From a virus (taxonomy: Duplodnaviria; Heunggongvirae; Uroviricota; Caudoviricetes): a stretch of 13,401 bases of DNA. The position numbers and the translations under genes are program-made. The stretch spans positions 1-13,401 of IMG/VR virus record IMGVR_UViG_2737471844_000004, one strand, 5' to 3'. The first letter of the stretch is position 1. Each line of letters opens with the position of its first letter. This document shows, in pieces, positions 1-12,147 of this stretch. The notes below the pieces were generated by a model. The model was not told the DNA's origin. It saw only the letters and a list, made by a program, of their open reading frames with translations, and ran no database searches.

Positions 1-762
1 ATGTGTTGTAAAATCAGTCGAAGCCTAACAAGTGTGAATGACCTTTTAACCATGACGCAAGTGTTCAATGTTTACTGTGATGAGTCCTGCCATTTAGAAA
101 ATGATGGTCAAAAAGCAATGGTGCTCGGGGCTGTTTGGTGTCCTCTCAATAAGAGGTTTGGTATTGCTAATCGAATACGAGAGATAAAGCTCAAACATGG
201 CTTGGACCCACGTTTTGAAGTCAAATGGACTAAGGTTGGGGCTTCTAAAATTGAGTTTTATAAAGATTTGGTGGATTACTTCTTTGATGATGATGATCTT
301 CATTTCCGGGGATTGGTTATTCCTGACAAAACTCAGCTAAAGCATGATGATTTCGATCAAAGTCATGATGACTGGTACTATAAAATGTATTTTGTCATGT
401 TGAAAACTATTTTTGAGCCAGGAAGTCAATATAGAGTCTTTATTGATATAAAAGATACTCTTGGTCATGAGAAAATACTCAAGTTACATGATGTATTATG
501 TAACAATGCATATGATTTCTCTAGGAAAACAATTTCTAATATTAAGAGAATTAATTCTCATGAAGCTGAGCAATTGCAACTTGCTGATTTATTAATAGGT
601 GCCCTTAGTTATATGCATAGAGGTTTAAATGAAAGTAAGCCAAAACTTTTATTAATTAACAGGATCAGAGAAAGGAGCGGCTATAATCTAACCCAAAATA
701 CTTTGCTTCGAGAGTTAAAGTTTAATCTAATGATCTGGCAATCTAATGGGGGATGTCGATGA
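1..762 (+). CDS. DUF3800-like protein, function unknown
   Basis: Complete 253-aa ORF. 'NVYCDES' near the N-terminus and 'EQLQLADLLIGAL' near the C-terminus match the two hallmark motifs of Pfam DUF3800 as I recall them (YxDES ... QxAD). The ATG at nt 1 sits on the window edge. An internal ATG at nt 52 (MTQVFNVYCDES) gives the short N-terminus typical of the family, so the start is uncertain. About 30% G+C in a hand-counted 60-nt sample. Confidence 0.75.
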   Translation: MCCKISRSLTSVNDLLTMTQVFNVYCDESCHLENDGQKAMVLGAVWCPLNKRFGIANRIREIKLKHGLDPRFEVKWTKVGASKIEFYKDLVDYFFDDDDLHFRGLVIPDKTQLKHDDFDQSHDDWYYKMYFVMLKTIFEPGSQYRVFIDIKDTLGHEKILKLHDVLCNNAYDFSRKTISNIKRINSHEAEQLQLADLLIGALSYMHRGLNESKPKLLLINRIRERSGYNLTQNTLLRELKFNLMIWQSNGGCR

Positions 763-1244
763 GTCCGGTTTGGCTACCCGAGCAAATTTTATTAGAACAC
801 TATCAAGGTGAGTGGGAGGCCTACTTTGATAGTGTTTATCAAGCATTCCACCGCGATTTCGTTTTATCTAAACCAGTTTTTCGTGGCGTTCGATTAGGAT
901 TGAAACGTCATCCAGAATATGAAGGTAAATCAGCCACATTCTGGCATATGATTAGCACTGGAAATGTAGAAAGTGAGAGAGTGCCGGATATTCGGCGCTG
1001 CGAAAGAATTAGTTGGCCTAAGCCTGTTATAGATAATAGTACCGATACCTGTTTGAAAGTCTGGGCTGAGCCCAAAGGTAAAAATAGACGTATCCACATT
1101 TGGTTTGAGGATGAGGGATATCTGGTGGTTTTAGATGATAGAGGCGATTTTATGCTTCCATGGACAGCGTTTTATATTGAACATAACCATCAACGAAAGA
1201 AATACAATAAGAGATGGGAAAGACACAATCATAACGGTATTTGA
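753..1244 (+). CDS. Hypothetical protein, partner of the DUF3800-like gene; no family recognised
   Basis: 163-aa ORF overlapping the upstream stop. The ATG at 759 forms an ATGA overlap with the TGA at 760-762 and lies 5 nt after the SD-like GGGGGA (748-753), so 759 is the likelier start; the track start is 753. Distinctive motifs: FWHMISTG, RRCERISWPKPVI, LVVLDDRGDFMLPWTAFYIEHNHQRKKYNKRWE. AT-rich like its neighbour. Confidence 0.7.
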   Translation: MSMSPVWLPEQILLEHYQGEWEAYFDSVYQAFHRDFVLSKPVFRGVRLGLKRHPEYEGKSATFWHMISTGNVESERVPDIRRCERISWPKPVIDNSTDTCLKVWAEPKGKNRRIHIWFEDEGYLVVLDDRGDFMLPWTAFYIEHNHQRKKYNKRWERHNHNGI

Positions 1245-1253
1245 TAGTAGGCT

Positions 1254-1282
1254 GGCCGCGCCCTTCCTAGAAGGACGGGGCC
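1254..1282 (+). other. Imperfect GC-rich hairpin just after the two-gene operon (possible transcript-end or stability element)
   Basis: GGCCGCGCCCTTC-cta-GAAGGACGGGGCC: 11 paired positions, 2 mismatches, 3-nt loop, starting 10 nt after the TGA at 1242-1244. No T-run follows, so it is not a canonical intrinsic terminator. Confidence 0.3.
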
Positions 1283-1548
1283 GTAACTCCTTCTACACTT
1301 ACGCTAGAAGCTGGTAGATGAGATAGCCTAACTTTAAGTAAACCTGCCTTGCGAGTCAATTAACATTAGAAAGCGATTATGTAAATGTGGATGCTGACTT
1401 GGCGAAAAATCCTTATAAATCAATAGATAGTAGGTTTATTTTCAACTCATAGTTTTTGACTATTAATAGTATGTTATCTATCTAAAAAAAGTTTTCTGTA
1501 TTCATCGCAAAATCAATACTGCTTTAGCATTGTAGTTAGCCATCAGTT

Positions 1549-1574
1549 GCAAAAAGCCTTACCCGTAGGCTTAA
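1549..1574 (-). terminator. Weak intrinsic terminator closing the island's minus-strand transcription
   Basis: On the minus strand AAGCCT-acgggta-AGGCTT (6-bp stem; plus-strand arms 1554-1559 and 1567-1572) is followed by TTTTTG. It lies about 40 nt after the stop of the 59-aa ORF. The short stem makes it moderate at best. Confidence 0.4.
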
Positions 1575-1611
1575 CGTTTGGCTTGGCTGTAGTCTTACCG
1601 TAACGCTCCGC

Positions 1612-1791
1612 TCACCGTCGTGGCCTGTCCGGTTTCTTCCACTGATACGGCCTCACATCATCCTGCTGGTGGCGTTCCTGTTGCAGCACAACGGAAACAG
1701 GCGCTGAACACCTGTTAATTTTGCTTGCTGGTTGTTTGATTTCGGCAATGCTGCGGATCATCTCCAGCATATCGGCTTCGGTGATGGTCAT
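1612..1791 (-). CDS. Small hypothetical protein (59 aa), absent from the ORF track (below the 60-aa cutoff)
   Basis: Hand translation from the ATG at 1791: MTITEADMLEMIRSIAEIKQPASKINRCSAPVSVVLQQERHQQDDVRPYQWKKPDRPRR, stop TGA at 1614-1612. A strong SD, AAGGTG, lies 6 nt upstream of the ATG. Same strand as the island operons and followed by the hairpin at 1554-1572. Confidence 0.45.
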   Translation of the reverse strand: MTITEADMLEMIRSIAEIKQPASKINRCSAPVSVVLQQERHQQDDVRPYQWKKPDRPRR

Positions 1792-1798
1792 GATTTAC

Positions 1799-2082
1799 AC
1801 CTTAGGAAATCTTAGGGGGCTGGTTGACACTTTCCGGCTTAAGACCTTAACAAACCTTAACATCGCAGGTTGACACACTTGACACTTTTTCGCGAAAAAC
1901 CTTATCAAACCTTAGCATTTCTAAGCATGGCAACTTGACACTTTTCGCGATTTTTTTCGGCTTTTTGACGTGGTAAATCTGGCGCAAGGCCAGTAACGGC
2001 GGGGCTTACAGCGAGGTTGACACTTTTTCGCGTTCAGAGTGTAAAGTGTCAACCCGGCAAGCTGCTCAACTTGACACTTTTT
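1799..2082. repeat. Interleaved two-family repeat array; candidate packaging-specificity (cosB/pac-like) or other multi-site protein-binding region
   Basis: Family 1, TTGACAC(TTT): direct at 1824-1833, 1870-1877, 1879-1894, 1935-1949, 2017-2032, 2071-2082; inverted at 2043-2052 (AAAGTGTCAA). Three copies extend to TTGACACTTTT(T)CGCG. Family 2, ACCTTA(N), occurs in pairs phased 10 bp apart: 1799/1809 (second copy ATCTTAG), 1844/1854, 1899/1909. There is also a palindrome CTTAGcatttCTAAG at 1911-1925. The two families alternate along the 295-bp gap between the TerS-like gene and the 59-aa ORF. Confidence 0.85.
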
Positions 2083-2086
2083 GATG

Positions 2087-2614
2087 TCATTGATGGTCTG
2101 ATTTTTCCCATTCAGCTAGGGCGTTTAGCCCGGCTTCACTCCATGATTCCAGTTCATCGGCATAATCACCTGCAACATAGCAGAGTTCGCAACGCAGCAT
2201 ACTAATTGCCAGCCTGGCATTACCTCGCAAATTGTATTGTTCAAAGTAATGCTGCCCGTCGCAATCCTCAAGGCAGATAGCACCATCATCAAGAAATTGC
2301 ACTTCCCAGCCTAATTCCCCGGCTGCATCCAGCACACGCTGCTGTATGCCCTCGTCCGTTGCTGGCGCAGGAATTTTACCGTCTCTGGCCTTAACTGCTT
2401 TCCAGAACTCGCCCCACGTCATTTCCAGCGTTCTCTCTGGCCACATTTCAGAAACTGTGTCTTTTCCCTGTGCTGGTGGGCTGTTCCGCTGCTCTGTCGC
2501 TTCCACATCGATTTTTTTACCGGACATGACCACTTCGCCTTTCTCGATCCAGTCGTAAACTGTCTGGCGGCTTACGCCTTTGTGTTTGGCATATTCTGCC
2601 TTACTCATCAGCAT
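2087..2614 (-). CDS. Terminase-small-subunit-like HTH protein; candidate packaging-redirection (Rpp-like) factor
   Basis: 175-aa ORF. The N-terminus MSKAEYAKHKGVSRQTVYDWIEKGEV is a helix-turn-helix of the type at the N-terminus of lambda Nu1-like small terminases. No large terminase, portal or capsid gene follows. It is the last large gene of the operon and abuts the repeat array. An SD-like GGGTGAG precedes the ATG at 2614. Confidence 0.5.
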   Translation of the reverse strand: MLMSKAEYAKHKGVSRQTVYDWIEKGEVVMSGKKIDVEATEQRNSPPAQGKDTVSEMWPERTLEMTWGEFWKAVKARDGKIPAPATDEGIQQRVLDAAGELGWEVQFLDDGAICLEDCDGQHYFEQYNLRGNARLAISMLRCELCYVAGDYADELESWSEAGLNALAEWEKSDHQ

Positions 2615-2620
2615 TATGAC

Positions 2621-3292
2621 TCACCCTTCTTTTTCCAGTTGAGCCAGCCGCCCGGATATTTCTTCCAGTTTTTCCAGGGCTGGCTTGCAGGCCGCATCAA
2701 TAACGTCCCGGACCATTCCGGCAAGCTGTTCTTCTGCTGTCGGCGTTGTTACTTCCACGCCCGATGGTTTCCCGCCCTTATCCCAAACACCAAGCGGCAC
2801 GAGCGCAACGTGATCGATAAGAAATGGCGTACCCTCAATAAAAAAATTGTCCTCGCCCATTACATCAGGAACTTCTGCCCCACCTGAGGCACCACAAAAC
2901 ACAACCGACGGACTGGTGGATACCTCCCCTCGGGCTTTCTGGATGTAATCGATGATTTCCTGTCCGTAAATCCGGCATACGCCCCACACCTCGTCACCGC
3001 GAATATACGGCAACATGACGGTGCCAATAATGCGCGACCGTTCGCCCACGTCTTCAAGGGTTTTGCTTTCGGGATGGTCGATAATGACGGGTACTCCGGC
3101 GCAACGTTCCAGGAACTGCGGATTGAGATAAGTTTGCGGTGAACGCCAGACAAATTCTTTTTCTTCGGCGCGGTAGGCCATTCCGGTTCCTGTGATACGC
3201 AGGTTAACCAGCCACATGTTGGAAAACTGATAAGGCGACGGTAGCTGTCCGTCCCGAATCTGCTTCGCCGCCTCAATTTCTGTTAAAAGCAT
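2621..3292 (-). CDS. DUF2213/XkdF-like prohead protease or scaffold-like protein (morphogenesis-related candidate)
   Basis: 223-aa ORF. The pattern VPVIIDHP ... IIGTV ... GDEVWGVCRIY ... EVSTSPSVVF ... IDHVALVPLGVWDKGG resembles the DUF2213 layout as I recall it (H..., lS.GY, NH.ALV..GRAG). The C-terminus LEKLEEISGRLAQLEKEG looks coiled-coil. The family call is from recollection only. Confidence 0.45.
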   Translation of the reverse strand: MLLTEIEAAKQIRDGQLPSPYQFSNMWLVNLRITGTGMAYRAEEKEFVWRSPQTYLNPQFLERCAGVPVIIDHPESKTLEDVGERSRIIGTVMLPYIRGDEVWGVCRIYGQEIIDYIQKARGEVSTSPSVVFCGASGGAEVPDVMGEDNFFIEGTPFLIDHVALVPLGVWDKGGKPSGVEVTTPTAEEQLAGMVRDVIDAACKPALEKLEEISGRLAQLEKEG

Positions 3293-3316
3293 AATGTTAT
3301 CCGGTTATAAGCAATA

Positions 3317-3340
3317 AGCCCCGCCAAATCCGGCAGGGCT
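3317..3340 (-). promoter_or_regulatory. Intergenic hairpin between the 192-aa and 223-aa genes (possible attenuator or processing site)
   Basis: Plus strand AGCCCCGCC-aaatcc-GGCAGGGCT: 9-bp stem with one mismatch. On the minus strand it is followed by TTATTGCTTAT, only partly T-rich. Confidence 0.3.
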
Positions 3341-3356
3341 GAACTCAGCACGTTTT

Positions 3357-3935
3357 TCATGCCCCCGCGAGGCTTGCAACGTTAATTTTGACCAGGCGAC
3401 GGGGAGGGATTTTGAAGGCGTTCAGCCAGACGTTCGGATCTCCCTGATATTCAGTAATACGACGACCAGCTTCATCCATTCTTACGGTTTTACCCAAATG
3501 GCCCGGCGTGTTTTCCACGGCCCACTGAGCACTTTCCTGAGCAGCCTTGTAAATCTGATCTTCCAGCACCGCCAGCGTTGCAGAATCTGAAACGGAACGA
3601 ATATCCACATCACTGAATTTTTTAGCCAGCTTCTGTGCGCCAATTAATGCACGTTTGCGGTAATCCATCGACTTTTCACCAGCAAACGGGGCCGGAGCGC
3701 GACGGCCCATATTGCTGTATGCGGAATCCGCTTTAGCCTGGGCTTCTGCCAGTGAGGATTCATCTTCGACTGACGCGACGATGTTTTGATTAGCGTTATC
3801 CTCTTTTATGAAATCCTGTGCGGGGATCGCATTCAGAATTTCGATAATCTCCTGCGGAGTGCTTCCCTGCGACTCTGACAGAGCGTTAACCACCTCCATC
3901 AGTTTTAATCGCAAATCTTCTTTGCTTGCTGGCAT
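3357..3935 (-). CDS. Hypothetical protein (192 aa) of the morphogenesis/packaging operon
   Basis: The track ORF runs 3357-3944 from a GTG. The ATG at 3935 (MPASKEDLRLKLMEV...) has the SD GAGGTG 6-7 nt upstream and is preferred. The N-terminal half is acidic and helical-looking. No family recognised. Confidence 0.65.
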   Translation of the reverse strand: MPASKEDLRLKLMEVVNALSESQGSTPQEIIEILNAIPAQDFIKEDNANQNIVASVEDESSLAEAQAKADSAYSNMGRRAPAPFAGEKSMDYRKRALIGAQKLAKKFSDVDIRSVSDSATLAVLEDQIYKAAQESAQWAVENTPGHLGKTVRMDEAGRRITEYQGDPNVWLNAFKIPPRRLVKINVASLAGA

Positions 3936-3974
3936 TTTTACCACCTCTCTTTTTTCACCAAAAAATCACGACCA

Positions 3975-4148
3975 TCAGGCCGGACGTTCTACGGGATAAA
4001 GCGCCCGCTGCATTAAACGCCGGGCGACCTCATGAATGCTCGGAGCAATCCCCAGCGGAGAATTGCGGCGTTCCTCGTCCTGGATGCGCTGTAATGCTTC
4101 AATCTGATCACGAGCGAGTAAAACGGGTTTCACGCTGGCTTTTCTCAT
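3975..4148 (-). CDS. Small ribbon-helix-helix-like protein, first gene of the morphogenesis/packaging operon
   Basis: The track ORF is 3975-4172. The ATG at 4148 (MRKASVKPVLLARDQIEALQRIQDEE...SIHEVARRLMQRAL) lies 7 nt after AGGAGA; an alternative ATG is at 4154. The strand/helix/helix pattern suggests a CopG/Arc-type fold by eye. Confidence 0.5.
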   Translation of the reverse strand: MRKASVKPVLLARDQIEALQRIQDEERRNSPLGIAPSIHEVARRLMQRALYPVERPA

Positions 4149-4275
4149 AGTCATATCTCCTGAACAAAACAATGATTATGATTGCACAAACTGAAATGAC
4201 GATCTACATCATTGCAATTTATGAAACAATAACGCATGATGATCGCGTTCTTCCCATTGACTTCAATCACCTGCA

Positions 4276-4314
4276 AAAATAAAACCCGCAACACTTCTGG
4301 CTGCGGGTTTTTTA
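4276..4314. terminator. Bidirectional intrinsic terminator
   Basis: AAAAATAAA-ACCCGCA-acacttctggc-TGCGGGT-TTTTTT: 7-bp GC-rich stem (4284-4290 / 4302-4308), with an A-run upstream and a T-run downstream, so a U-tract follows on either strand. Confidence 0.7.
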
Positions 4315-4321
4315 CTGGCAC

Positions 4322-4345
4322 AAAAAAGCCGGGAAAAATCCCGGC
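4322..4345 (-). terminator. Intrinsic terminator right after the PerC-like gene
   Basis: Minus strand GCCGGGA-tttt-TCCCGGC followed by TTTTTT (plus-strand A-run 4322-4327). It begins 6 nt after the stop at 4351 and sits in tandem with the 4276-4314 terminator. Confidence 0.75.
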
Positions 4346-4350
4346 CTCCG

Positions 4351-4638
4351 TCACTGACTGCAATTTTTCGATCCAGGGTATTTCCTGAATGCCTTACCAT
4401 TGGGCTGATGTAATCCCATCCCGGCATGTGCCCGGCTGATGGTTTCGCGCATCTCCCCGAAATTATCCTGCCGTGCTGGTGGGCGTGCTGCCTTGCGGAT
4501 ACATTCCGCGCGACGTTTTGCCGCCTGTTCCCGTGCCTTGTCATCATTCGCCAGCATGATGACCTCAGCCCACCGCGCCGCCGCTCTCCGGTACAGACCA
4601 CGCGCTTCCAGTGCTTCCGCTTTGCTGTCGTGAATCAT
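4351..4638 (-). CDS. PerC-family-like transcriptional regulator
   Basis: 95-aa ORF. 'AEALEARGLYRRAAARWAEVI' matches the conserved LE..G.YRRAA.RW core I associate with PerC/Pch proteins. Its ATG (4638-4636) overlaps the upstream stop as ATGA. Confidence 0.6.
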   Translation of the reverse strand: MIHDSKAEALEARGLYRRAAARWAEVIMLANDDKAREQAAKRRAECIRKAARPPARQDNFGEMRETISRAHAGMGLHQPNGKAFRKYPGSKNCSQ

Positions 4639-5183
4639 GCGCCTGTTTTCTCCTTTGCTGCCCGGCGCTGACGTTTGCGCTTCTCATTCAGCGCCACCAG
4701 CCGCGTTTCTGCGTCCTGTTGTTCCTGTGGTGTCACCTCGCCGCACGGCTGGCCTTTCAGGTCGTAGCGTACCCCACCAGCCATTAAGGCGCGGTAATAG
4801 CGCGGACACTGCGCATAAGATGCCAGCGTCGCACGTAATGCCCCTGGCCCGAATGCCAGCCCCCTGACGGCGAGATCCTGCATCAGGTCGTCGAATATCC
4901 CCACCTTAAGCGGCTTCGGTGCTTCCCGGCTGAATAATTCAGGCCACAACTCAGTGAGGCGGTTAATGCGCCTGCGGTTTTTTCGCTGCCGTTTGGTCAT
5001 ATGCCGCCACGGTGTCGCCCCTGTGGGCTTCTGCTGCGCTTTCTGGTTACCGGGCATCACTTTATGCGCCGATGTGGTTTTATCCTGCTGCTGCTGCTGC
5101 TGCTGCTGCTGCGCCGCCTGCGTCGTTTTCTGCGGCGTGCCGTAAATGCCTTTCGGTTTTCTGTTAATAGTCAGCTTAGTCAT
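4635..5183 (-). CDS. ProQ/FinO-domain RNA-binding protein with an N-terminal poly-Q tract
   Basis: LTELWPELFSREAPKPLKVGIFDDLMQDL ... LRATLASYAQCPRYYRALMAGGVRYDLKGQPCGEV aligns by eye with E. coli ProQ ([22 protein letters not shown] ... [35 protein letters not shown]). The track ORF extends to 5231. The ATG at 5183 (MTKLTINRK) has GGGG 6 nt upstream and is preferred. Confidence 0.75.
   Translation of the reverse strand: MTKLTINRKPKGIYGTPQKTTQAAQQQQQQQQQDKTTSAHKVMPGNQKAQQKPTGATPWRHMTKRQRKNRRRINRLTELWPELFSREAPKPLKVGIFDDLMQDLAVRGLAFGPGALRATLASYAQCPRYYRALMAGGVRYDLKGQPCGEVTPQEQQDAETRLVALNEKRKRQRRAAKEKTGA
5085..5111. repeat. Perfect trinucleotide repeat (CTG)9 on the plus strand = (CAG)9 encoding Q9
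   Basis: Nine uninterrupted CTG units counted directly. In frame, giving QQQQQQQQQ in the ProQ/FinO-like protein. Confidence 0.95.
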
Positions 5184-5236
5184 GCTTTGCCCCATCGTTT
5201 TTACTGATTGTTTCATATCCGGTACTTTCATCTTCT

Positions 5237-5522
5237 GGGTAGAGGGGTAGACGGCGGGTAGATAACAAAAAATAGTCCTCTACCCACTTAACTTAATGAA
5301 AAAAAACAACTTTCACACATTAGGTAGAGGGGTAGACCGTAAAATAGAAAAGTTTGAAACTTACTTTCTTACAATCTGTGTTTTCCTCTCGCTGTATAAA
5401 AAGTTTTTTGAGCGGGGATGTTGTCTACCCCTCTACCCACTTCTCTGAAAGCCTTGTGCTACGAGGGATTCAGCGGGTAGACAATAAAAAATCACCATCT
5501 ACCCTGTGTCTACCCATCTACC
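5237..5522. repeat. Iteron-type replication origin (candidate ori) just downstream of the primase/helicase gene
   Basis: Core GGGTAGA(C): direct at 5237, 5245, 5256, 5323 (GGTAGA), 5330, 5475; inverted (G)TCTACCC at 5279, 5423, 5431, 5498, 5508, 5517. The 16-mer GGGTAGAGGGGTAGAC (5237-5252) has an exact reverse complement at 5423-5438, and its 15-mer recurs at 5323-5337. AT-rich blocks at 5286-5320 and 5338-5410 lie between the iteron clusters. Confidence 0.75.
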
Positions 5523-5539
5523 TGTTACGGGTATTACTC

Positions 5540-7288
5540 TTATAAAAATTCCTCGGTTCTCTCCGTTTGTATAACGTTGGTTTGTATTCGTCCTTTAAAA
5601 CCTCTTGTCAGGTATTCAGCCCCATATTCTCTTGCTGCTGACTTCATGGCCTTACCAAAATCACCGACACTTAATATTTCTTCTTCCCCCATATACTCCA
5701 TAAAGGCGAGATATAGTCTGTACAGGCTTGTACGCGGATTAAGATCAGTTAATCTCTTACCGCCTCCCATCATCATCCCATGCGGTTCATCAAGAAATGC
5801 AAGCGCCGCACATAACCCAATGACAGGATCAGTTTCCTGTTTTATTTTCAGAGCTTCGGCACCGTCGCGCTGCTCCAACAATAATTCCCGTGCTTTTTCT
5901 GGATCGGAAAAGTTAGCCAGTAATCGACGAATAATGACAGGTATTTCCGCCGCTATCTTTTGCGGTAACTCTTTATCCTTTTCGGTCTCCCTTACAATAT
6001 TATCGAACCGAAAAATTACACGTCGACGCGCAACGCCTCCGGCCCGTTCGGTGAATGTCATCGGCACGTTATTTGTTGCCAGCACGACGGACCTGATAAT
6101 TGTTGTGAAACGCTTTTCATATTTCGGGTTAATTTCAACTGGATCTCCACCCGTTATTTTTTTGATGCCGGATCCTTCACCTGTATATTTCGGCTGGTCT
6201 GCCAGGACAATAAGACGACTTCCGACAACCTGCGCACGCCCGCCAGCATCATCAAGCGATGTCATTTCAGCGCTTACCGTGTTCTGTTTCCCTGCCAGAA
6301 GGGTGGCTATGTGCGTGATTGTGCTCTTGCCGCTCCCGCCTTCCCCTGTGGCCTCAATAAACATCTGCCAGTCGTACCGGTTCGCCATAATCATGTACAG
6401 CGCGGCGCATATACGCATCATCTTTCGCGGGTCTTTTCCTGCGGCGTGATCAAGCCATTTATGAAAGTTTGGCGCGTTGTCGCGGATGTTCTCCCCTGGT
6501 ACTGGTGGCGTGTACTCAATGCCGTTATGCGTGGTGATCCAGTTATCCGGCGAGTGCGGGGAAAATTCGCCAGTTTTCATGTCAAGCACGCCATTAGAGA
6601 ACGGCAATAAATCACCTGACGGTTCCCCCATTGGCCTGGCCATAACTTTTAAAGCATCCACAGCATTACTTATTGCTCTCCGACTAAACGATGTTCCGTT
6701 TTCTTCGTAAATAGCCACCATTTCACGACTAAGATCCAGTGTGCTTACCGGAACCCAAAAATCATCGCGCCAGACGTGGACAACCTCACTCTCCTGATTC
6801 ATTGCTACATCCTGAAATCGTTCAGCTAAAAGTTTTGCCCTTTGGCTGTCCGCCATTCTGGAAAGAGATATTTTGTGTTTTTTCTCGGTCCTTCCTGACA
6901 GAATTTCTCCGCGCTCAGCCTGTTCGCGGATCCGTTGCAGGTAGTCGCGCCAGTTCTCCGGTTCCTGGTCGGTGATGCCTTTGTATAATTTCGCCTCCTG
7001 TACGCCAGCCAGCGCCAGCTTTTCAGCGATAGTATTGATCTGGATTGGCTCTATCTCCCCCGCGATATAGACACGCGCAAAACGGCGTTTCTCGTCAATA
7101 ATGCGGATATTCGCCAGGTCTGCCAGTTGCTTTGGCCCCAGGTAAACAGGAGGCACGTTATCGCCGTGTTTTCGTCCTTCACTTTCAATCCAGTGTTGAG
7201 CATGGGCGTAAGCATCCGTCCCGGCAAAAATGATTACCTCAGTGAATTTATCCTTCGGCTGATATTTTAGACTCGGTGCGTTTTTCAC
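5540..7288 (-). CDS. P4-family phage/plasmid primase-helicase (D5-type NTPase), replication initiator
   Basis: 582-aa ORF. Walker A GEGGSGKS is encoded at 6346-6323; a Walker-B-like LIVLADQP lies downstream. The overall pattern resembles the C-terminal domain of P4 alpha / D5-family primases. GTG start at 7288 with the SD GGAGG 6 nt upstream, overlapping the upstream stop as GTGA. An iteron ori follows. Confidence 0.85.
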   Translation of the reverse strand: MKNAPSLKYQPKDKFTEVIIFAGTDAYAHAQHWIESEGRKHGDNVPPVYLGPKQLADLANIRIIDEKRRFARVYIAGEIEPIQINTIAEKLALAGVQEAKLYKGITDQEPENWRDYLQRIREQAERGEILSGRTEKKHKISLSRMADSQRAKLLAERFQDVAMNQESEVVHVWRDDFWVPVSTLDLSREMVAIYEENGTSFSRRAISNAVDALKVMARPMGEPSGDLLPFSNGVLDMKTGEFSPHSPDNWITTHNGIEYTPPVPGENIRDNAPNFHKWLDHAAGKDPRKMMRICAALYMIMANRYDWQMFIEATGEGGSGKSTITHIATLLAGKQNTVSAEMTSLDDAGGRAQVVGSRLIVLADQPKYTGEGSGIKKITGGDPVEINPKYEKRFTTIIRSVVLATNNVPMTFTERAGGVARRRVIFRFDNIVRETEKDKELPQKIAAEIPVIIRRLLANFSDPEKARELLLEQRDGAEALKIKQETDPVIGLCAALAFLDEPHGMMMGGGKRLTDLNPRTSLYRLYLAFMEYMGEEEILSVGDFGKAMKSAAREYGAEYLTRGFKGRIQTNVIQTERTEEFL

Positions 7289-7575
7289 TTCTTACCTCCC
7301 GCAACCAACATTGCCCGGATTTTTTTTATATTCGTGGCTGCACGTCTCGCCACTGCCTGTTGTTTGTTTTCCACCAGAATAAAATCACGATCAAACTGAC
7401 GGCGCGGCATTACGCAGTCATATTCGTAAGCCTCACGGCGGTAGGTGATATTGCCTGGCGTAACGTGACGAATAACCACCCGTCCCCCGCGTCTGGTGTC
7501 CCGGAAAATATCACCGGGGCGGATTTCAGGCCGAGAGAGGCCGCTGGCAGTAAAGCCAGAATTTTTCTTTTTCAT
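7285..7575 (-). CDS. Small basic protein, possibly DUF4222-like
   Basis: 96-aa ORF. 'IRPGDIFRDTRRGGRVVIRHVTPGNITYRREAYEYDCVMPRRQFDRDFILV' resembles the DUF4222 pattern I recall from genes just upstream of primases in P4-like prophages. Confidence 0.45.
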   Translation of the reverse strand: MKKKNSGFTASGLSRPEIRPGDIFRDTRRGGRVVIRHVTPGNITYRREAYEYDCVMPRRQFDRDFILVENKQQAVARRAATNIKKIRAMLVAGGKK

Positions 7576-7579
7576 GGTT

Positions 7580-7780
7580 TTATTTTCCTGTCAGCAGTTC
7601 CGGTTTTATTTCCGCACGAATACAAAGTTCAGAAAAAAATTCAGGAGAACCAACAATCTCATTACTTTTCAGTCGGCATTGTGATTTCACTTTCCCTTTA
7701 TCCAGGTAAACCAGTACGCGTCCGGTGAAATCATCTGGCACATTAAGCACTACGGGTACATGCACTTCATGATTATGCAT
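7580..7780 (-). CDS. Hypothetical protein with one copy of a ~45-aa 'D-FTG' repeat domain
   Basis: 66-aa ORF. Its ATG overlaps the upstream stop as ATGCATAA. The domain FTGRVLVYLDKGKVKSQCRLKSNEIVGSPEFFSELC aligns with both repeats of the 7999-8364 product. Confidence 0.6.
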   Translation of the reverse strand: MHNHEVHVPVVLNVPDDFTGRVLVYLDKGKVKSQCRLKSNEIVGSPEFFSELCIRAEIKPELLTGK

Positions 7781-8006
7781 GGCTTACATCCTCCGTGAAT
7801 TTTCTTCTGTAACGCGCCTCTGCCACATATTCCGCATAGTCCGACGCAATACTAAGAATCATTTCACCCTCTGACTTGTAGCCACTGGTATTGATAAGAA
7901 AATATGCAGCTTTCATCATGTCAGCAACGCTCAACAATGCGCCCGATGTATCTTCCGGTGCGCCATCAAATTCCCGTTTCAGGGAATTAAAACGATCATC
8001 ACGCAT
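7773..8006 (-). CDS. Hypothetical small acidic protein
   Basis: 77-aa ORF, overlapping both neighbours by 8 nt. No family recognised. Confidence 0.55.
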   Translation of the reverse strand: MRDDRFNSLKREFDGAPEDTSGALLSVADMMKAAYFLINTSGYKSEGEMILSIASDYAEYVAEARYRRKFTEDVSHA

Positions 8007-8364
8007 GTTTACCCCCCTGAATGACCTGATAACCGCAACTGGTCAGCAACTCGATAAATTCCGGCAGTGTGCCGAAACAGCAATCATCACGCAGCCGTTC
8101 GCAGGATACCTCGACGCCGTTTTCGTAGTGACTCACCATACGTCCGGTAAAATGCAGATCATCATCGTGATGGCTCGTTGACGGCTTAATCAGTCGCGCA
8201 CGTTCCGCCAGTTCCAGCAATGCTTCAACGCTTCCGGCAATTGCACCATCCGGCAGGTGGTAATTACGCACTATGCGCCCGTTCTCCACATGGACCAGTA
8301 GCTGCCCGGTAAATTTCTCGTCAAACTGAATGCTGTTAAGGTCAGAAATTGACAGGTTATGCAT
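7999..8364 (-). CDS. Hypothetical protein with two tandem 'D-FTG' repeat domains
   Basis: The track ORF extends to 8382. The ATG at 8364 (MHNLSISD...) overlaps the upstream stop as ATGCATAA and is preferred. Repeats: FTGQLLVHVENGRIVRNYHLPDGAIAGSVEALLEL and FTGRMVSHYENGVEVSCERLRDDCCFGTLPEFIELL. Confidence 0.65.
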   Translation of the reverse strand: MHNLSISDLNSIQFDEKFTGQLLVHVENGRIVRNYHLPDGAIAGSVEALLELAERARLIKPSTSHHDDDLHFTGRMVSHYENGVEVSCERLRDDCCFGTLPEFIELLTSCGYQVIQGGKHA

Positions 8365-8581
8365 GGTGCACCTCCTGCACATCAGCCATGATAATTTTTC
8401 CGGCCTTATCCAGTGCCTGATCGGCTTTTAGCTGCACAAATGCTAAATAATGGGAGATGCATTCTGATTCTCTGGCTGCGTGTTTATGCGCCACACCAGC
8501 GATAGCAGAAATCTCAATAAGTGAATCCATCAGCGTTTTGATAGCGTCTACCGCTGCATCAGGCCATGTTGCATTACACAT
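8357..8581 (-). CDS. Hypothetical small protein
   Basis: 74-aa ORF. Its ATG at 8581 overlaps the upstream stop as ATGTGTAA. No family recognised. Confidence 0.55.
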   Translation of the reverse strand: MCNATWPDAAVDAIKTLMDSLIEISAIAGVAHKHAARESECISHYLAFVQLKADQALDKAGKIIMADVQEVHHA

Positions 8582-8939
8582 GTTCCACCTCCTGGCGAAT
8601 ACGGGCGGCGAATACCATCACGCAGCCATCAGGAGATTGCTGACGTGCTTCCTGTTCGCTGGTGGCCTCGATGTGAATTACGCGCGGTTGTGCCGTGCTC
8701 AGGGCGATAAAACGCCAGATAAAATTGTTCTCGCATTTCTGAATAAACAGCGTGTTTTCTTCGCGCCCTTTCCATGTTGCCGAGATATAGCCCATGTCAT
8801 TGAGCATCTCGCAGGCATCAACCAGCGTATCAGCAGCTACGTGTACAGTGTTTTTACCGTCAGCTATGCAATCACGGTGCACCGCCAGGAAGGTGTATAT
8901 AAATTTAGGGTGAGTTTGGGTATGCTGTGTTCCAGCCAT
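8574..8939 (-). CDS. First gene of the replication operon; possibly Icd-like (host cell division inhibitor-like)
   Basis: This is the 3' part of the 510-aa track ORF. An internal ATG at 8939 (MAGTQHTQTHPKFIYTFLAV..., 121 aa) has the SD GAGG 8 nt upstream and lies about 90 nt downstream of a good sigma70 promoter. 'HPKFIYTFLAV' resembles N-termini of proteins annotated Icd-like in P4-like prophages; this is weak recollection. Confidence 0.5.
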   Translation of the reverse strand: MAGTQHTQTHPKFIYTFLAVHRDCIADGKNTVHVAADTLVDACEMLNDMGYISATWKGREENTLFIQKCENNFIWRFIALSTAQPRVIHIEATSEQEARQQSPDGCVMVFAARIRQEVEHV

Positions 8940-8969
8940 AATCGTTACCTCATTTAACGGTTTGGTTAG

Positions 8970-9003
8970 ACGCCCCGCTACTGCCGCAAACAGTTCGGGG
9001 CGT
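8970..9003 (-). promoter_or_regulatory. Leader hairpin in the 5' UTR of the replication operon
   Basis: ACGCCCCG (8970-8977) and CGGGGCGT (8996-9003) form an 8-bp GC-rich stem with an 18-nt loop, between the predicted TSS (~9030) and the ATG at 8939. No U-tract on either strand. Confidence 0.35.
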
Positions 9004-9028
9004 TGTCGTTTACATCCTCTTACTGAGG

Positions 9029-9104
9029 TGTGATTTAAATTAAATTTAACTGAATCACAGGTCAAGTATTTTTTGTGATTCTTTTTTGTGTATACTGAAT
9101 CACA
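9029..9104. promoter_or_regulatory. Twin palindromic operators in the divergent switch region
   Basis: O1 is TGTGATT-N17-AATCACA (9029-9059). O2 is TGTGATTC-N15-GAATCACA (9074-9104). Both span 31 bp and are offset by exactly 45 bp; CTGAATCACA is repeated at 9050 and 9095. O1 covers the minus-strand promoter. O2 covers the putative plus-strand -10 TATACT (9091-9096). Confidence 0.6.
9037..9065 (-). promoter_or_regulatory. Sigma70-type promoter for the minus-strand replication operon
   Basis: On the minus strand: -35 TTGACC (9065-9060), a 17-nt spacer, then -10 TAATTT (9042-9037). It overlaps operator O1. Confidence 0.5.
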
Positions 9105-9126
9105 TCTTTTGTTTAGGAGAATGCAC

Positions 9127-9432
9127 ATGGCAAAAAACACTATCAACGACAAATCAAAACAGATTTCAATTCGTATCCCACATGATGCTTTTGAAGGCAT
9201 GGAATCCGTAAAACTGGACGGTGAAAGCAACGCCGGATTCATAGTAACCGCCATGCGCGGTGAGATCGCCCGCCGCCAGGCAGAAGGAAGCGGAGAAAAT
9301 CCCCTGGTTTCTTCGCTCGATGCGCTGGCGCAGGTGGAAAAAATCGGAGTCAAAGCTGCCGAGGAGATCGGGCAGCTCGTCACCGTCGCACGTGAAGAAC
9401 TCCAGCGCCGCAAGGCCAAAGAATCAGAATAA
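9127..9432 (+). CDS. Small DNA-binding regulator (ribbon-helix-helix-like N-terminus, coiled-coil C-terminus); candidate switch repressor
   Basis: The track ORF starts at 9088. The ATG at 9127 (MAKNTINDKSKQISIRIPHDAFEGMESVKLD...) lies 6 nt after AGGAGA (9115-9120). 'QISIRIPHDAFEGM' looks like an RHH beta-strand plus helix. It is divergent from the replication operon, with the operators in between. Confidence 0.65.
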   Translation: MAKNTINDKSKQISIRIPHDAFEGMESVKLDGESNAGFIVTAMRGEIARRQAEGSGENPLVSSLDALAQVEKIGVKAAEEIGQLVTVAREELQRRKAKESE

Positions 9433-9489
9433 TAACTATCATCGCCGTGGTGTGAGGAACTCCGGCGCATTGCTTTACAGGTACACAGA

Positions 9490-9684
9490 ATGACCAACAA
9501 AGAATCAACCAATACACCATCACCGGCACGGAAAAGACGGCGCAGAAAGATAGAGCACGAATCAGAAAGATTCGCGCCATGTGCTTTTGCCCTTGAGCAA
9601 TTCCTTAAAGAGTACAGGCGCACAAAAATGGGATCGCATACCTGGAAAACATCGCGGCATGGCAATGTTAAAGAGCATGAATAG
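9490..9684 (+). CDS. Possible small basic protein (very uncertain)
   Basis: 64-aa ORF downstream of the RHH-like gene (MTNKESTNTPSPARKRRRRKIEHE...). There is no convincing SD, and it lies antisense to the long minus-strand frame. Confidence 0.2.
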   Translation: MTNKESTNTPSPARKRRRRKIEHESERFAPCAFALEQFLKEYRRTKMGSHTWKTSRHGNVKEHE

Positions 9685-10106
9685 CCCACCAGCAAGCCAG
9701 CACACTGATCACATTGCCCACCAGCCGCAAATCTGGCATTGTTGGCAATGTGTTCAAGTGTGTAGCTTTCCCACTGGTGGCCCTCTGCAGTCGCCTTTGT
9801 TTTATCCAGAACGAAATCAGACATCAGATTGATCAGCACCTGGTGACCTGACAAAATCGCATCAGTCACGCCACCAGCAAAATTTTTTGCTTTCCGGACA
9901 GCGTGGCCAACGGCATTTTGCAGCGAAATATTCTGCATTTCTGGCGTGCTGTAGTAACGGTGATCAGTGCCTTCACTCTGTGCGACCACAACGCTATAAT
10001 CTGCCTCGTAGACAGTAAGCAATATGGCGCAGTAGGCTATTCGTTCACAAAGGCGCTCCGGCAACGGGGCGCTTTCTCTTTTTGTAACGGTCAGAGCGTT
10101 ACACAT
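9685..10106 (-). CDS. Coding-looking 5' segment coupled to the antirepressor gene; 3' end unresolved (no stop until 8574)
   Basis: The ATG at 10106 overlaps the upstream stop as ATGTGTAA. The first ~135 residues (MCNALTVTKRESAPLPERL...YTLEHIANNARFAAGG) have protein-like composition, after which the frame turns Ser/Cys/Arg-rich. The lower coordinate is a judgement, not a stop codon. Confidence 0.3.
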
Positions 10107-10899
10107 GGCTGTTTTCCTCCATGCGACGGGCTAACCAACGCTGCGAAAGGCGAATTAATTCAGCTTTCCGCTGGTGGTAGTCCTGGCCTAACTCAATCAG
10201 CGTGATATTGCTCTGCTCAAGGTAAGAAAGGTGCTCAAGCTGCAACACGCTCATGTGGTCGCGTGGTTCACCTGTAATGCCGTTCGCCTGCGCCCACTGT
10301 TTTGCAGTCATGCCACCCAGCACGATACGCGCCAGCATGTTCGCTTCCGTGGTGTAGTGGTGCTGGAGTGTGTTTTTACCCAGTTCAGCCCGGTACGCCT
10401 CCAGCGCGGCACACATTGGCTTAAAGTAGCTGGCAACTGTGATACGGGCTTTCAGTTCCCGGCGTAACGCTGCGGAACGTACAGGCGCAACCTTGTGTAG
10501 CTCCTCCTCGCATTTGATAAAGTACTGACGAACGGCGCGCCCCTGTTCGGTGCGCTCGACCATCGCCAGTTCTTTCGCCATGTTGATAGTGCTCAGGTAG
10601 TCGTGCTCTACACGTTGGCGAGATTTTGCGCTCACCGGATTGGGGGAGGTCAAATTTTCTACGAATTCAAAATCCACGCCCTTTTTAAATCCGTACTCAT
10701 CAATGCGTCCTTTAATCCAAGTTGTGAAATCACGCTTCACACCCAGCGCCTTATGCAACGCTCTGGCGCTAACAATATTGGTTTCACGCCCGCCAATAAC
10801 GCCGGAAATAACCGGGATAATTTCGCCGAAATTTTGTTGGCTCTGGTTTTCAGGCCGAACGAAGCCCTGCCCCTGTACGGGCGTTTTTCGCAGTTTCAT
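10099..10899 (-). CDS. Phage antirepressor-type protein (AntA/Rha-like N-terminal domain)
   Basis: 266-aa ORF. 'IVSARALHKALGVKRDFTTWIKGRIDEYGFKKGVDFEF ... DYLSTINMAKELAMVERTEQGRAVRQYFIKCEEEL' matches the AntA/AntB antirepressor pattern as I recall it (ARdLh..Lgv..dFs.Wik.rI..y.f..g.Df ... dy.l.l.mAKel.Mve....G...R.YFI..E). The SD AGGAG lies 5 nt upstream. Confidence 0.75.
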   Translation of the reverse strand: MKLRKTPVQGQGFVRPENQSQQNFGEIIPVISGVIGGRETNIVSARALHKALGVKRDFTTWIKGRIDEYGFKKGVDFEFVENLTSPNPVSAKSRQRVEHDYLSTINMAKELAMVERTEQGRAVRQYFIKCEEELHKVAPVRSAALRRELKARITVASYFKPMCAALEAYRAELGKNTLQHHYTTEANMLARIVLGGMTAKQWAQANGITGEPRDHMSVLQLEHLSYLEQSNITLIELGQDYHQRKAELIRLSQRWLARRMEENSHV

Positions 10900-10977
10900 A
10901 AAAACTCCTGCTATCGAATTAAGTTACTTTTTATTTGCTGGTGGATAGCTGGGGCTTCTGGCCCCGTAGCTGTTTTA

Positions 10978-11196
10978 TCAGGCTGATGTGTTTCGGCGTT
11001 CTTCCAGCCAGCGATTAACCTCTACCGCATCGAATGCAGTGCTTTTCTCACCCAGTTTGATGGGCTTAGGCATCTTCCCGCTACGCACCCAACGATCGAG
11101 CGTTGATAAGCTGGTACCCAGCAATTCAGCCAGGCGATAGCGGCGGATATAGCCAGTTGCAGGGATTGCGGTTTGAAGTATTGGTTGGTTTTTCAT
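10978..11196 (-). CDS. alpA: AlpA-family transcriptional regulator/excisionase-like HTH protein
   Basis: 'YIRRYRLAELLGTSLSTLDRWVRSGKMPKPIKLGEKSTAFDAVEVNRWLEERR' fits the AlpA (Phage_AlpA) pattern. The track ORF extends to 11289, but that upstream part looks non-coding. Likely starts are the ATG at 11196 or 11205. Confidence 0.8.
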   Translation of the reverse strand: MKNQPILQTAIPATGYIRRYRLAELLGTSLSTLDRWVRSGKMPKPIKLGEKSTAFDAVEVNRWLEERRNTSA

Positions 11197-11308
11197 ATGC
11201 CCCATTACCTTTGTTGTTGGTTTGTGATTCGTAATAGGGGCATTAAATAACAAATGAAATGATGTGTGTGTGAGTTTTAGAAAAAACACTGTGACTTTTC
11301 TTATTTCA

Positions 11309-12091
11309 CTATCTAAAACGCTCTCGCCAGCTTTTCCAAGTGTTCTTATCTGGTTGTGGGATTACAATGCCTTTTTGAGCACCTATTTGTGCAATTTTTT
11401 TATTTAACTTGTTAGGCGGCAAAGATATTATCTCATTGTCTGTTAATCCGGCAATTCTTAATAATCCATATATCATTTTAAATTGATGTATTGTTAATCT
11501 TGGTAACTTGTGATTTTCTTTTTTTATAGTGTTGTTTATGGAGTAAATTGGAAATCCATTTGTTATTGATTTATAAAGGTTGTCAATGTGCTCTCTGGTT
11601 ATTAATAATGAATCAGGTGTAATCTTAATGTTGCCGCTTGTTTTTGCATGGCATGAAAAAATAAATGTGGGATTCGCAGTGCGACGTGAAAGCGGTATGG
11701 ATGTATTCATAGAGATAGTTTTGTTTCTTACTATAGTCTCTTGAATATCAAAAACTCCAGAAACCTTTGCCTCAAAAATAACACCATTTTCTTTTATTTC
11801 ATCACTATATTCATGAATAATTATGCCAAGAGAGGAAATTTCTTTTTTGATGAGAAAAGAAATAAAATCAATATAGTCTTCATCCTTTGGCCATGTAAAA
11901 TCACGATAACCAAAATACCCCTCACAGTAAGCATTTTTTATTTTTGTGGCAAAATTAATTCTGTTAATATCCTGCCAATGCCATAAATCATCTATCTCAC
12001 ATTCTAAAATTTGAGCTGCTCTATCTAAAGAGCAGAATTCTAATGGAGGTAATTGTTTTTTTTGCCATATTGTTTCATTAATATTTGTCAT
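11309..12091 (-). CDS. AT-rich orphan protein (260 aa) between int and alpA; function unknown
   Basis: Complete ORF, about 33% G+C in a hand-counted 60-nt sample versus about 50% or more in the island core. No family recognised. The N-terminal 'LEFCSLDRAAQILECEIDDLWHWQ' and C-terminal 'LTDNEIISLPPNKLNKKIAQIGAQKG' look loosely HTH-like. Confidence 0.7.
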   Translation of the reverse strand: MTNINETIWQKKQLPPLEFCSLDRAAQILECEIDDLWHWQDINRINFATKIKNAYCEGYFGYRDFTWPKDEDYIDFISFLIKKEISSLGIIIHEYSDEIKENGVIFEAKVSGVFDIQETIVRNKTISMNTSIPLSRRTANPTFIFSCHAKTSGNIKITPDSLLITREHIDNLYKSITNGFPIYSINNTIKKENHKLPRLTIHQFKMIYGLLRIAGLTDNEIISLPPNKLNKKIAQIGAQKGIVIPQPDKNTWKSWRERFR

Positions 12092-12147
12092 GATTGCACT
12101 ACCGTTATGAAAAAATATATTCGTTAATGAATTAGCCTTAATGTCTA

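Follow-up and report, generated by a model that had tools for sequence, protein, structure and literature searches.

A conserved antisense small RNA very probably forms a three-part cassette with the rlfA/rlfB (PDC-M04) gene pair and is found without the proteins in phage genomes

PADLOC-DB v2 lists, under the name PDC-M04, a two-protein prediction from a set of 145 untested phage defence candidates (PDC) that were collected by guilt-by-embedding in BREX, DISARM and type I restriction-modification (R-M) loci (preprint 10.1101/2024.01.29.577857). Phage P1 carries two genes, rlfA and rlfB, each of which is recorded as "possibly associated with lytic replication," and Weinberg et al. (2017) described eleven structured RNAs beside DUF3800 genes, on either strand and several of them with terminators, for which no function was proposed (PMC5737381). 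In this report we describe a cassette that resembles all three. It lies near the start of a 13,401-nucleotide (nt) stretch of viral DNA (IMG/VR record IMGVR_UViG_2737471844_000004, positions 1 to 13,401), called the window below, by which the whole stretch analyzed is meant. The cassette consists of an rlfA-like DUF3800 gene (gene A), an rlfB-like gene (gene B) and, on the other strand just past gene B, a predicted small RNA (sRNA) gene. The protein pair is already catalogued; what is new here is the sRNA and the orphan copies of it that phages carry. Our literature search found no paper naming "PDC-M04," none that took up what the DUF3800 RNA motifs do, and none that ties DUF3800 to a tested phage-defence phenotype.

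The window sequence was read directly for open reading frames (ORFs), start/stop overlaps, Shine-Dalgarno sequences, peptide motifs, and G+C content. Genes A and B are two ORFs on a common strand, A at 52 to 762 (plus strand, 236 amino acids [aa], the RefSeq start in Escherichia coli A17) and B at 759 to 1244 (plus strand, 161 aa from the ATG at 759). Protein A matches the PDC-M04A model of PADLOC-DB v2 (E 8.3e-98) and protein B the PDC-M04B model (E 8.8e-74), both over the full model length. Membership in PDC-M04 was judged from these protein models, with both components matched by adjacent genes that overlap by 4 nt, and not from PADLOC's system-calling rules. By tblastn, protein A is 54.6% identical to RlfA of phage P1 (E 3e-70, 97% coverage) and protein B is 37% identical to RlfB (E 5e-26, 83% coverage). 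The rapA and rapB genes of P7 are also homologous to A and B, and in both P1 and P7 the two genes are adjacent and in like order. An earlier, sequence-only reading of this DNA had presented the pair as a candidate undescribed anti-phage system and had itself listed an existing name in defence databases among the findings that would speak against it. Judged by sequence comparison, the pair is not undescribed, as it falls into the rlfA/rlfB family and into PDC-M04.

The window cassette nevertheless differs from both of its described relatives. PDC-M04 is a two-protein prediction, and PADLOC models proteins only, which places the RNA outside its definition; the type I R-M operon context of many cassettes fits the way in which the candidates were found. 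P1 resembles the window in having homologous, adjoining genes in like order and the sRNA antisense just past rlfB (L002 4653 to 4731, minus strand, equivalent to AF234172 52904 to 52982; E 6e-13 with our covariance model R1), at a place where the P1 record annotates no RNA. It differs in that the P1 operon comes after repL, from which a C1-controlled operator separates it, whereas the window cassette is the terminal cargo of a chromosomal satellite-like island. A further rlfA/rlfB-like pair (50% and 32% identity) was seen in the actinobacterial Bifidobacterium phage Bbif-1 (GQ141189, 34952 to 36153), which would extend the cassette to phages of Gram-positive hosts.

Genes A and B are strictly linked, as the earlier reading had expected if the pair were a functional unit. 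Among 80 species genomes with a B homologue, an A homologue lies directly upstream of B on the same strand in 79, and in the 80th the contig ends 40 bp before B, so that linkage holds in 79 of 79 testable loci. These genomes belong to the Gammaproteobacteria, Desulfobacterota, Nitrospirota, Planctomycetota, Verrucomicrobiota, Chlorobiota, and Acidobacteriota. The ATGA overlap proposed for the window was confirmed at 759 to 762 (plus strand), where the ATG of gene B (759 to 761) lies over the TGA of gene A (760 to 762), 5 nt behind a Shine-Dalgarno-like GGGGGA at 748 to 753 (plus strand) within the 3' end of gene A. Since the same 4-nt overlap recurs in 53 of 93 related loci, with a 1-nt overlap in 15 more, the sequences support translational coupling of A and B.

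The most conserved noncoding feature of the locus lies past gene B. All-against-all comparison of this DNA gave 1,728 pairwise matches among 82 loci, including 20-nt exact matches between P1 and loci from Desulfobacterota or Marinomonas, and the alignment delimits a conserved element of about 70 to 90 nt. Here we predict an sRNA gene of about 75 to 80 nt (81 aligned loci) that runs on the minus strand from about 1324 to about 1247, towards gene B; the 5' end (about 1324) was placed from the promoter, the 3' end (about 1247 to 1250) is approximate, and the covariance-model match covers 1243 to 1329. A promoter scan identified a predicted sigma-70-type promoter for it at 1331 to 1359 (minus strand), with a -35 box TTGACT (1359 to 1354), a 17-nt spacer, and a -10 box TAAAGT (1336 to 1331). 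Over the 81 loci the TTG of the -35 box is kept in 79 to 81, and positions A2 and T6 of the -10 box are kept in 80 and 77. The spacer is 17 nt long in 68 loci, and the distance from the -10 box to an invariant CUCA is 8 to 9 nt in 78.

Helices were derived with RNAalifold and explicit pair counting, and all statistics refer to a 76-sequence alignment (A5). The 5' stem-loop (1287 to 1322, minus strand) is formed by helix P0, CUC at 1322 to 1320 with GAG at 1289 to 1287, and helix P2, UCUAC at 1318 to 1314 with GUAGA at 1296 to 1292. Its loop is variable, with an extra small hairpin in the window, and the stem-loop includes the invariant CUCA and the AAGGAG stretch; the first (5') helix is 99.5% paired, with pairs that vary as CG/UA, UA/UG/CG, and AU/GU. 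The 3' stem-loop (1254 to 1282, minus strand; A5 columns 54 to 63 paired with 80 to 89) is imperfect and GC-rich and shows compensatory changes in 7 of its 9 pairs; 63 of the 76 sequences retain one particular U·G pair. It is terminator-like and is followed by a conserved CAGCC, after which a U-run stands in most of the other, nonenterobacterial loci. The stop codon of gene B falls -1 to +12 nt from the base of this stem in 65 of 76 loci. Across A5, 98.3% of cells are paired, compared with 89.6 ± 0.5% after shuffling (0 of 500 shuffles reached 98.3%), and compensatory changes affect 9 pairs (127 cells) against a shuffled mean of 5.5 pairs (45.6 cells). When the partners were slid by 1 to 3 columns as a control, 40 to 55% of cells were paired. 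Covariance model R1 matches each locus once, in every case antisense and immediately 3' of B, held-out loci and P1 included. It has one match only in the window (E 6.6e-18), where the single-sequence fold of the RNA is the same as the consensus structure (z -2.13).

The sequence-only reading had noticed the hairpin at 1254 to 1282 and taken it for the end of the A/B operon. The hairpin is exactly there, but it belongs to the predicted antisense sRNA gene. We rejected a plus-strand 3' untranslated-region element or operon terminator, as the minus strand is 98.3% paired with 135 G·U pairs and the plus strand 88.1% with 3, and there is no plus-strand U-tract. The terminator scan did not call this hairpin. 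The asymmetry in G·U pairs assigns the RNA to the minus strand. This bears directly on the two-protein model of the earlier reading, in which a DUF3800 hydrolase is the effector, its partner is a sensor, regulator, or antitoxin, and the hairpin merely terminates the operon. The strict linkage and translational coupling of A and B agree with that model, as do the predicted nuclease-type fold and the motifs of protein A. Nonetheless, we regard it as distinctly improbable, because the hairpin lacks a plus-strand U-tract, pairs properly on the minus strand only, and is part of an RNA with a promoter of its own that is found also without the proteins; the model leaves out this RNA, the most conserved noncoding feature of the locus. 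The model is at least incomplete, having missed the conserved antisense sRNA.

Three other candidates were tried and set aside. A small ORF in the element was rejected, since the loop takes insertions of 12 to 18 nt, the AUG of the short variant is absent from the long ones, and the substitutions in the stems are compensatory. An attC-like DNA recombination site is unlikely given the -35 and -10 boxes at a fixed distance, the U-run in most loci, and the common orientation of orphan copies within tRNA arrays. A conserved noncoding element upstream of gene A was also considered, and the cross-phylum blast matches there were explained by hsdS genes, whose 3' ends lie at that place.

Rfam 15 (4,227 models) gave no match at gathering score in the window, and at E values up to 5 to 10 it gave none on the E. 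coli A17 locus (L001), in window 1200 to 1620, or in a short-variant locus. The same library contains the DUF3800 motifs and picked up DUF3800-VII, -VIII, and -IX RNAs beside orphan copies of the sRNA. No further copies of the element were found in E. coli beyond the three complete genomes that carry the cassette. Like the DUF3800-I to -XI motifs, the window sRNA is a structured RNA beside a DUF3800 gene, on the opposite strand, with a terminator-like terminal stem, and its orphans adjoin DUF3800-VII, -VIII, and -IX RNAs in phage DNA; it matches no Rfam model. It appears to be a further, unlisted DUF3800-associated RNA, as judged against the Rfam models. Taken from its sequence conservation, the cassette is very probably a conserved three-part module that includes a real RNA.

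Viral sequences were searched with a degenerate pattern of the RNA core followed by confirmation with the covariance model. The RNA was present on 30 viral contigs, all of them model-confirmed (E 1e-18 to 4e-9). Genes A and B were present on 2 of the 30, both of which are the window's own element, and were not found on the other 28 by tblastn or family hidden Markov models. Neighbors of these orphan copies include genes for portal, large terminase, T4-type tail sheath stabilizer, tail tube, tape-measure, and DNA polymerase proteins. Several orphans sit within phage tRNA arrays, on the strand of the tRNAs (L099, with 31 tRNAs and a transfer-messenger RNA [tmRNA]; L114, with 37 tRNAs; L117; and L122). 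On L097 a tRNA abuts the RNA, and the metagenome contigs L176, L202, and L203 also have tRNA-associated copies. Others lie in unannotated intergenic DNA, in Bacillus phages phi3T and SPbeta-like Goe11 to Goe14, in Vibrio phages 1.084.O and 1.121.O, and in Geobacillus and Mammaliicoccus phages.

Other sRNAs stand close to some of the orphans. In phi3T (L124, KY030782; cluster at 3496 to 3687) an Rfam DUF3800-VIII RNA lies 57 nt downstream of the orphan, viral contig L094 has a DUF3800-VII RNA just upstream (cluster at 2653 to 2931), metagenome contig L136 has its orphan between two DUF3800-IX RNAs (cluster at 4643 to 5224), and an abiF RNA is near the orphan of L104 (cluster at 6925 to 7798). 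No DUF3800 gene is nearby in any of these four clusters. Such small clusters of defence-associated sRNAs seem to recur in phage genomes as a kind of "RNA array."

An RNA-first sample of 80 metagenome loci showed both arrangements. Genes A and B are adjacent to the RNA and convergent with it in 42 of the 80; in 7, B is adjacent and A is missing (mostly at a contig end), and in 4 the cassette is beside the RNA while being scored "elsewhere" by the distance rule. One locus (L149) has a marginal B match only (E 1.6e-4), and 6 have too little flanking sequence. The remaining 20 lack B although at least 700 nt of flank is available; 17 of these are model-confirmed, and the other three pattern matches (L150, L152, and L179) were left unconfirmed by the covariance model and are not counted as RNA copies. 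Of the 74 metagenome loci with enough flank, about 53 thus place the RNA beside both A and B or, where a contig ends, beside B only. A set of 42 orphan copies is 97.6% paired against 86.7% after shuffling, a value reached by 0 of 500 shuffles, with 11 compensatory pairs; this alignment was fitted to the model.

Where the full cassette occurs in bacterial genomes, its surroundings are often those of defence genes. An HsdS gene of type I R-M directly precedes the cassette in 35 of 76 genome loci, and the downstream neighbor is an HsdR-type gene in about 11 to 12 of 64; other neighbors are TIR, SEFIR, Mrr, and GmrSD genes and integrases. Roughly half of the bacterial cassettes lie inside type I R-M operons, away from any replicon. 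The anti-phage role that the earlier reading had suggested for this pair was judged plausible in view of the HsdS neighbors. In Yersinia the cassette is the final cargo of an element with a P4-type primase, and in Pseudomonas aeruginosa it closes an operon-like run of HsdR, Mrr-like, HsdM, HsdS, reverse-transcriptase-like, and unknown genes. The last two genes of that run (L083 to L088, 5433 to 9300) have overlapping coding regions directly upstream of the cassette and encode a 737-aa protein, which matches reverse transcriptases weakly, and a 557-aa protein, for which no match was found. As the run is set in a type I R-M island, all of it may be one composite defence operon of larger extent.

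These distributions can be set against the P1 annotation. If that annotation is right, RlfA and RlfB would be replication accessory proteins, acting for example through an RNase H-type enzyme in RNA primer or R-loop processing, and the sRNA would be a ColE1-like regulator of replication. The P1 operon does lie directly past repL/oriL, with the C1-controlled operator (former Op55) upstream of rlfAB and just 3' of repL, and PHROGs labels the B family "replication protein." We traced the PHROGs label to the P1 annotation, however, and that label is positional only. CRISPR interference (CRISPRi) mapping found P1 rlfA and rlfB to be nonessential, with plaques formed without them (PMC10695390). The window cassette sits at the opposite, far end of its island from the primase gene (5540 to 7288), and the many cassettes inside type I R-M operons have no replicon near them. 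A replication role is therefore very unlikely in our estimation.

The cassette might instead be a selfish addiction module, of toxin-antitoxin kind, that stabilizes satellites, P1-type plasmid prophages, and R-M islands and has no direct anti-phage function. Residence in mobile elements (the window island, the primase-bearing Yersinia elements, and phage P1) would suit such a module, and the convergent antisense-RNA layout resembles that of 3'-overlapping type I toxin-antitoxin loci. In P1-like plasmids, moreover, the rlfA-rlfB-pmgF segment is a replaceable cargo slot that is often swapped for other cargo (PMC6906374). The orphan copies are hard to explain in this way, given that they occur in lytic-type phages, in tRNA arrays, and beside other DUF3800-associated RNAs, and so marked a presence inside type I R-M operons is what one expects of defence genes. 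We consider a purely selfish module rather improbable, with the proviso that addiction and defence roles are not mutually exclusive.

Protein A falls within Pfam DUF3800 (PF12686), as the earlier reading had proposed, scoring 48 bits against a cut-off of 21 (E 2.8e-12) over profile positions 1 to 148 of 149. The peptide motifs quoted in that reading are all present; those of protein A are YCDES at residues 8 to 12 and QLADLL at 176 to 181. Residues D10, E11, D132, D135, E171, Q176, and D179 are invariant among 37 homologues. The literature gives DUF3800 an RNase H-like fold marked by DE and QxxD motifs (PMC7736814 and PMC10910872), and the invariant DE...D...QxxD residues of protein A agree with those descriptions. 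Protein A is predicted to be an RNase HII-like nuclease with an intact set of acidic motifs. Structure models of A and B both give folded alpha/beta proteins, and the RNase H-like fold predicted for A is one that PIWI/Argonaute and Cas nucleases also have.

That fold raises another possibility, namely that the sRNA is a cofactor or guide with which RlfA, of predicted RNase H/PIWI-type fold, and RlfB would recognize or cleave a nucleic-acid target, the phage copies then being competitors, sponges, or RNAs for the phage's own use. Besides the fold, links of DUF3800 proteins to Cas12a2 and to eleven other noncoding RNA motifs are on record (PMC10910872 and PMC5737381), and strong conservation of the unpaired parts of the RNA suggests specific recognition by a protein. 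Yet the single-stranded stretches are nearly invariant across phyla and so cannot encode a target specificity that varies between systems, no variable spacer-like segment is present save for the insertion-tolerant loop, and phages would have no obvious gain from carrying a cofactor for a host nuclease. A guide or cofactor role is accordingly an explanation to which we give a small share of belief. The near-invariant unpaired nucleotides speak more for a protein that recognizes them than for antisense action alone.

Protein B was said in the earlier reading to belong to no recognized family, and no Pfam, NCBIfam, or PDB sequence match was found for it, even with a 71-sequence profile; none of the 71 family members matched Pfam either. 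The family is large, with 1,897 cluster representatives at 50% identity. The motifs of protein B are FWHMISTG at residues 61 to 68, RRCERISWPKPVI at 79 to 91, and LVVLDDRGDFMLPWTAFYIEH at 122 to 142, and its invariant residues are P7, F61, W62, H63, R74, R80, R83, W102, Y121, and V123. These form an invariant patch of His, Arg, and aromatic residues on a small protein whose model is compact alpha/beta and confident (pLDDT 93.7). Foldseek returned nothing significant for it, the best E value being 0.37 (RelE/ParE-colicin D, BECR-type RNase toxins).

The cassette shares features with several known systems built on RNA. Retrons of type VII (Mestre et al. 2020, PMC7736814) likewise combine a DUF3800/RNase H2-like protein with a dedicated structured noncoding nucleic acid, but there the partner is a reverse transcriptase, whereas here it is RlfB, and the retron-linked DUF3800 proteins lack the Q of QxxD that protein A keeps (PMC7736814). 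Among the ten other window proteins scanned no reverse-transcriptase domain was found, and Rfam gave no retron RNA. Type III toxin-antitoxin systems such as ToxIN would resemble the cassette, within the model proposed below, in having an RNA that restrains a nuclease and that phages carry as an antidote. They differ from it in that the cassette RNA is single-copy (one model match per locus), has its own promoter, and lies downstream on the opposite strand and convergent, with no tandem-repeat array upstream of the toxin, and in that the cassette has two proteins, one of them predicted to be RNase H-like. The convergent 3' overlap of type I toxin-antitoxin systems is there, but the proteins are 236 and 161 aa long and modeled as folded, unlike the small hydrophobic membrane peptides that serve as type I toxins.

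We favor the reading that the cassette is an RNA-restrained nuclease, an anti-phage module of abortive-infection or toxin-antitoxin type for which the phage copies of the RNA serve as antidotes or decoys, and we put the chance that this is so at about even. Taken separately, a role of the cassette in defence or abortive infection seems slightly more likely than not, and a role of the sRNA as inhibitor or antitoxin falls a little short of an even chance. Under this model, proteins A and B would form a nuclease effector that a short-lived sRNA holds off, either by binding the proteins, as in type III systems, or by base-pairing to the rlfAB transcript at its 3' end, as in type I systems. If infection stops host transcription or breaks down RNA, the sRNA would run out and the nuclease would be set free. 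Phages might then evade the system with an sRNA copy of their own, in the manner of the phage-encoded pseudo-ToxI RNA that reportedly neutralizes the type III system ToxIN. That the effector's target is tRNA is speculation, hinted at by the placement of orphans by phage tRNA genes and by the weak resemblance of protein B to tRNase toxins.

Several points weigh against this reading. As late as 2025 and 2026, papers speak of the PDC set as not, or not all, validated, and the literature search found no phenotype for the A/B pair. In P1 the C1 operator suggests that rlfAB is expressed in lytic growth and not in lysogens, which is a poor fit to defence by a prophage, and we place here also the dispensability of P1 rlfA and rlfB, although it neither supports nor excludes defence. 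The window and the other enterobacterial loci have no U-run past the 3' stem, so that the 3' end of the RNA is uncertain there. The architecture of the cassette fits no canonical RNA-antitoxin class, and the resemblance of the protein B model to toxin folds is a weak lead.

The remaining features of the window concern the boundaries of the cassette and the island around it. RefSeq annotates the identical DNA of E. coli A17 (NZ_CP028757, cassette at 4702287 to 4703479) with a 236-aa "DUF3800 domain-containing protein" (start at window 52) and a 161-aa hypothetical protein (759). An in-frame ATG at base 1 would extend gene A to 253 aa, and the length of 163 aa given earlier for protein B holds only if it begins at the ATG at 753. 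The low G+C content of the pair proved real in that it lies below the 49.7% of the island core, but it is not about 30%: gene A has 34.9%, gene B 40.5%, and positions 1 to 1244 37.2%. The pair does converge on minus-strand island genes, the nearest being a 59-aa ORF at 1612 to 1791, across a spacer that had been described as AT-rich and about 300 bp long; it measures 367 bp (1245 to 1611) with 39.8% G+C and is no richer in AT than genes A and B. The assignment of the pair to a cargo position stood, since the cassette is the last cargo of a satellite-like island with genes for an integrase, AlpA, AntA, a D5_N/DUF5906 primase, ProQ/FinO, and DUF2213 proteins, next to dinD. In E. coli A17 the cassette-bearing island sits between yicC and dinD, and the dinD that adjoins it is a pseudogene.

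Comparison of the A17 island (L001, NZ_CP028757, 17087 to 28890) with window 2087 to 13401 showed the cassette and the flanking head-related genes in common. A17 has a RepA-family helicase in place of the window's D5_N/DUF5906 primase, indicating that the replication module was exchanged and the cargo kept. A 260-aa ORF beside the integrase (11309 to 12091, minus strand) has 31% G+C, the lowest in the window, and is matched by neither Pfam nor PADLOC. At the end of the island opposite to the cassette, it may likewise be foreign cargo, the second such gene. The island also encodes a ProQ/FinO-family RNA-binding protein with a poly-glutamine run (4635 to 5231, minus strand; E 9e-24). ProQ/FinO proteins bind sRNAs with terminator stems at their ends, and a link between this protein and the cassette sRNA is conceivable. 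In the AntA-domain protein (10099 to 10899, minus strand), the C-terminal residues 171 to 255 match another untested PADLOC candidate, PDC-S22 (E 2.5e-10). A 510-aa ORF at 8574 to 10106 (minus strand) overlaps several ORFs on both strands, has an odd low-complexity composition, and is probably no real gene.

So far the A/B pair has figured in catalogues as a prediction awaiting a test and, in P1, under a "replication" label that misleads. The sRNA of the cassette and its phage orphans join two questions, that of the role of rlfA/rlfB/PDC-M04 and that of the role of the DUF3800 RNA motifs. In practice, cloning the two ORFs alone may give toxicity or no phenotype, with the third component lost or truncated. 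If the favored reading is true, an RNA-controlled module with an RNase H-like nuclease would join the list of defence systems, and phages would possess a new type of counter-defence gene that is invisible to protein-based annotation. A broader proposal, which we hold to be less likely than not, is that DUF3800 nucleases at large are RNA-restrained abortive-infection effectors, that every subfamily has a dedicated sRNA (the eleven motifs of 2017 and the one described here), and that phages gather arrays of the antidotes beside their tRNA genes as a general means, built on RNA, of countering defence. Were this to hold for DUF3800 at large, it would give the DUF3800 RNA motifs a function and define a new class of RNA antitoxin with an RNase H-like effector.

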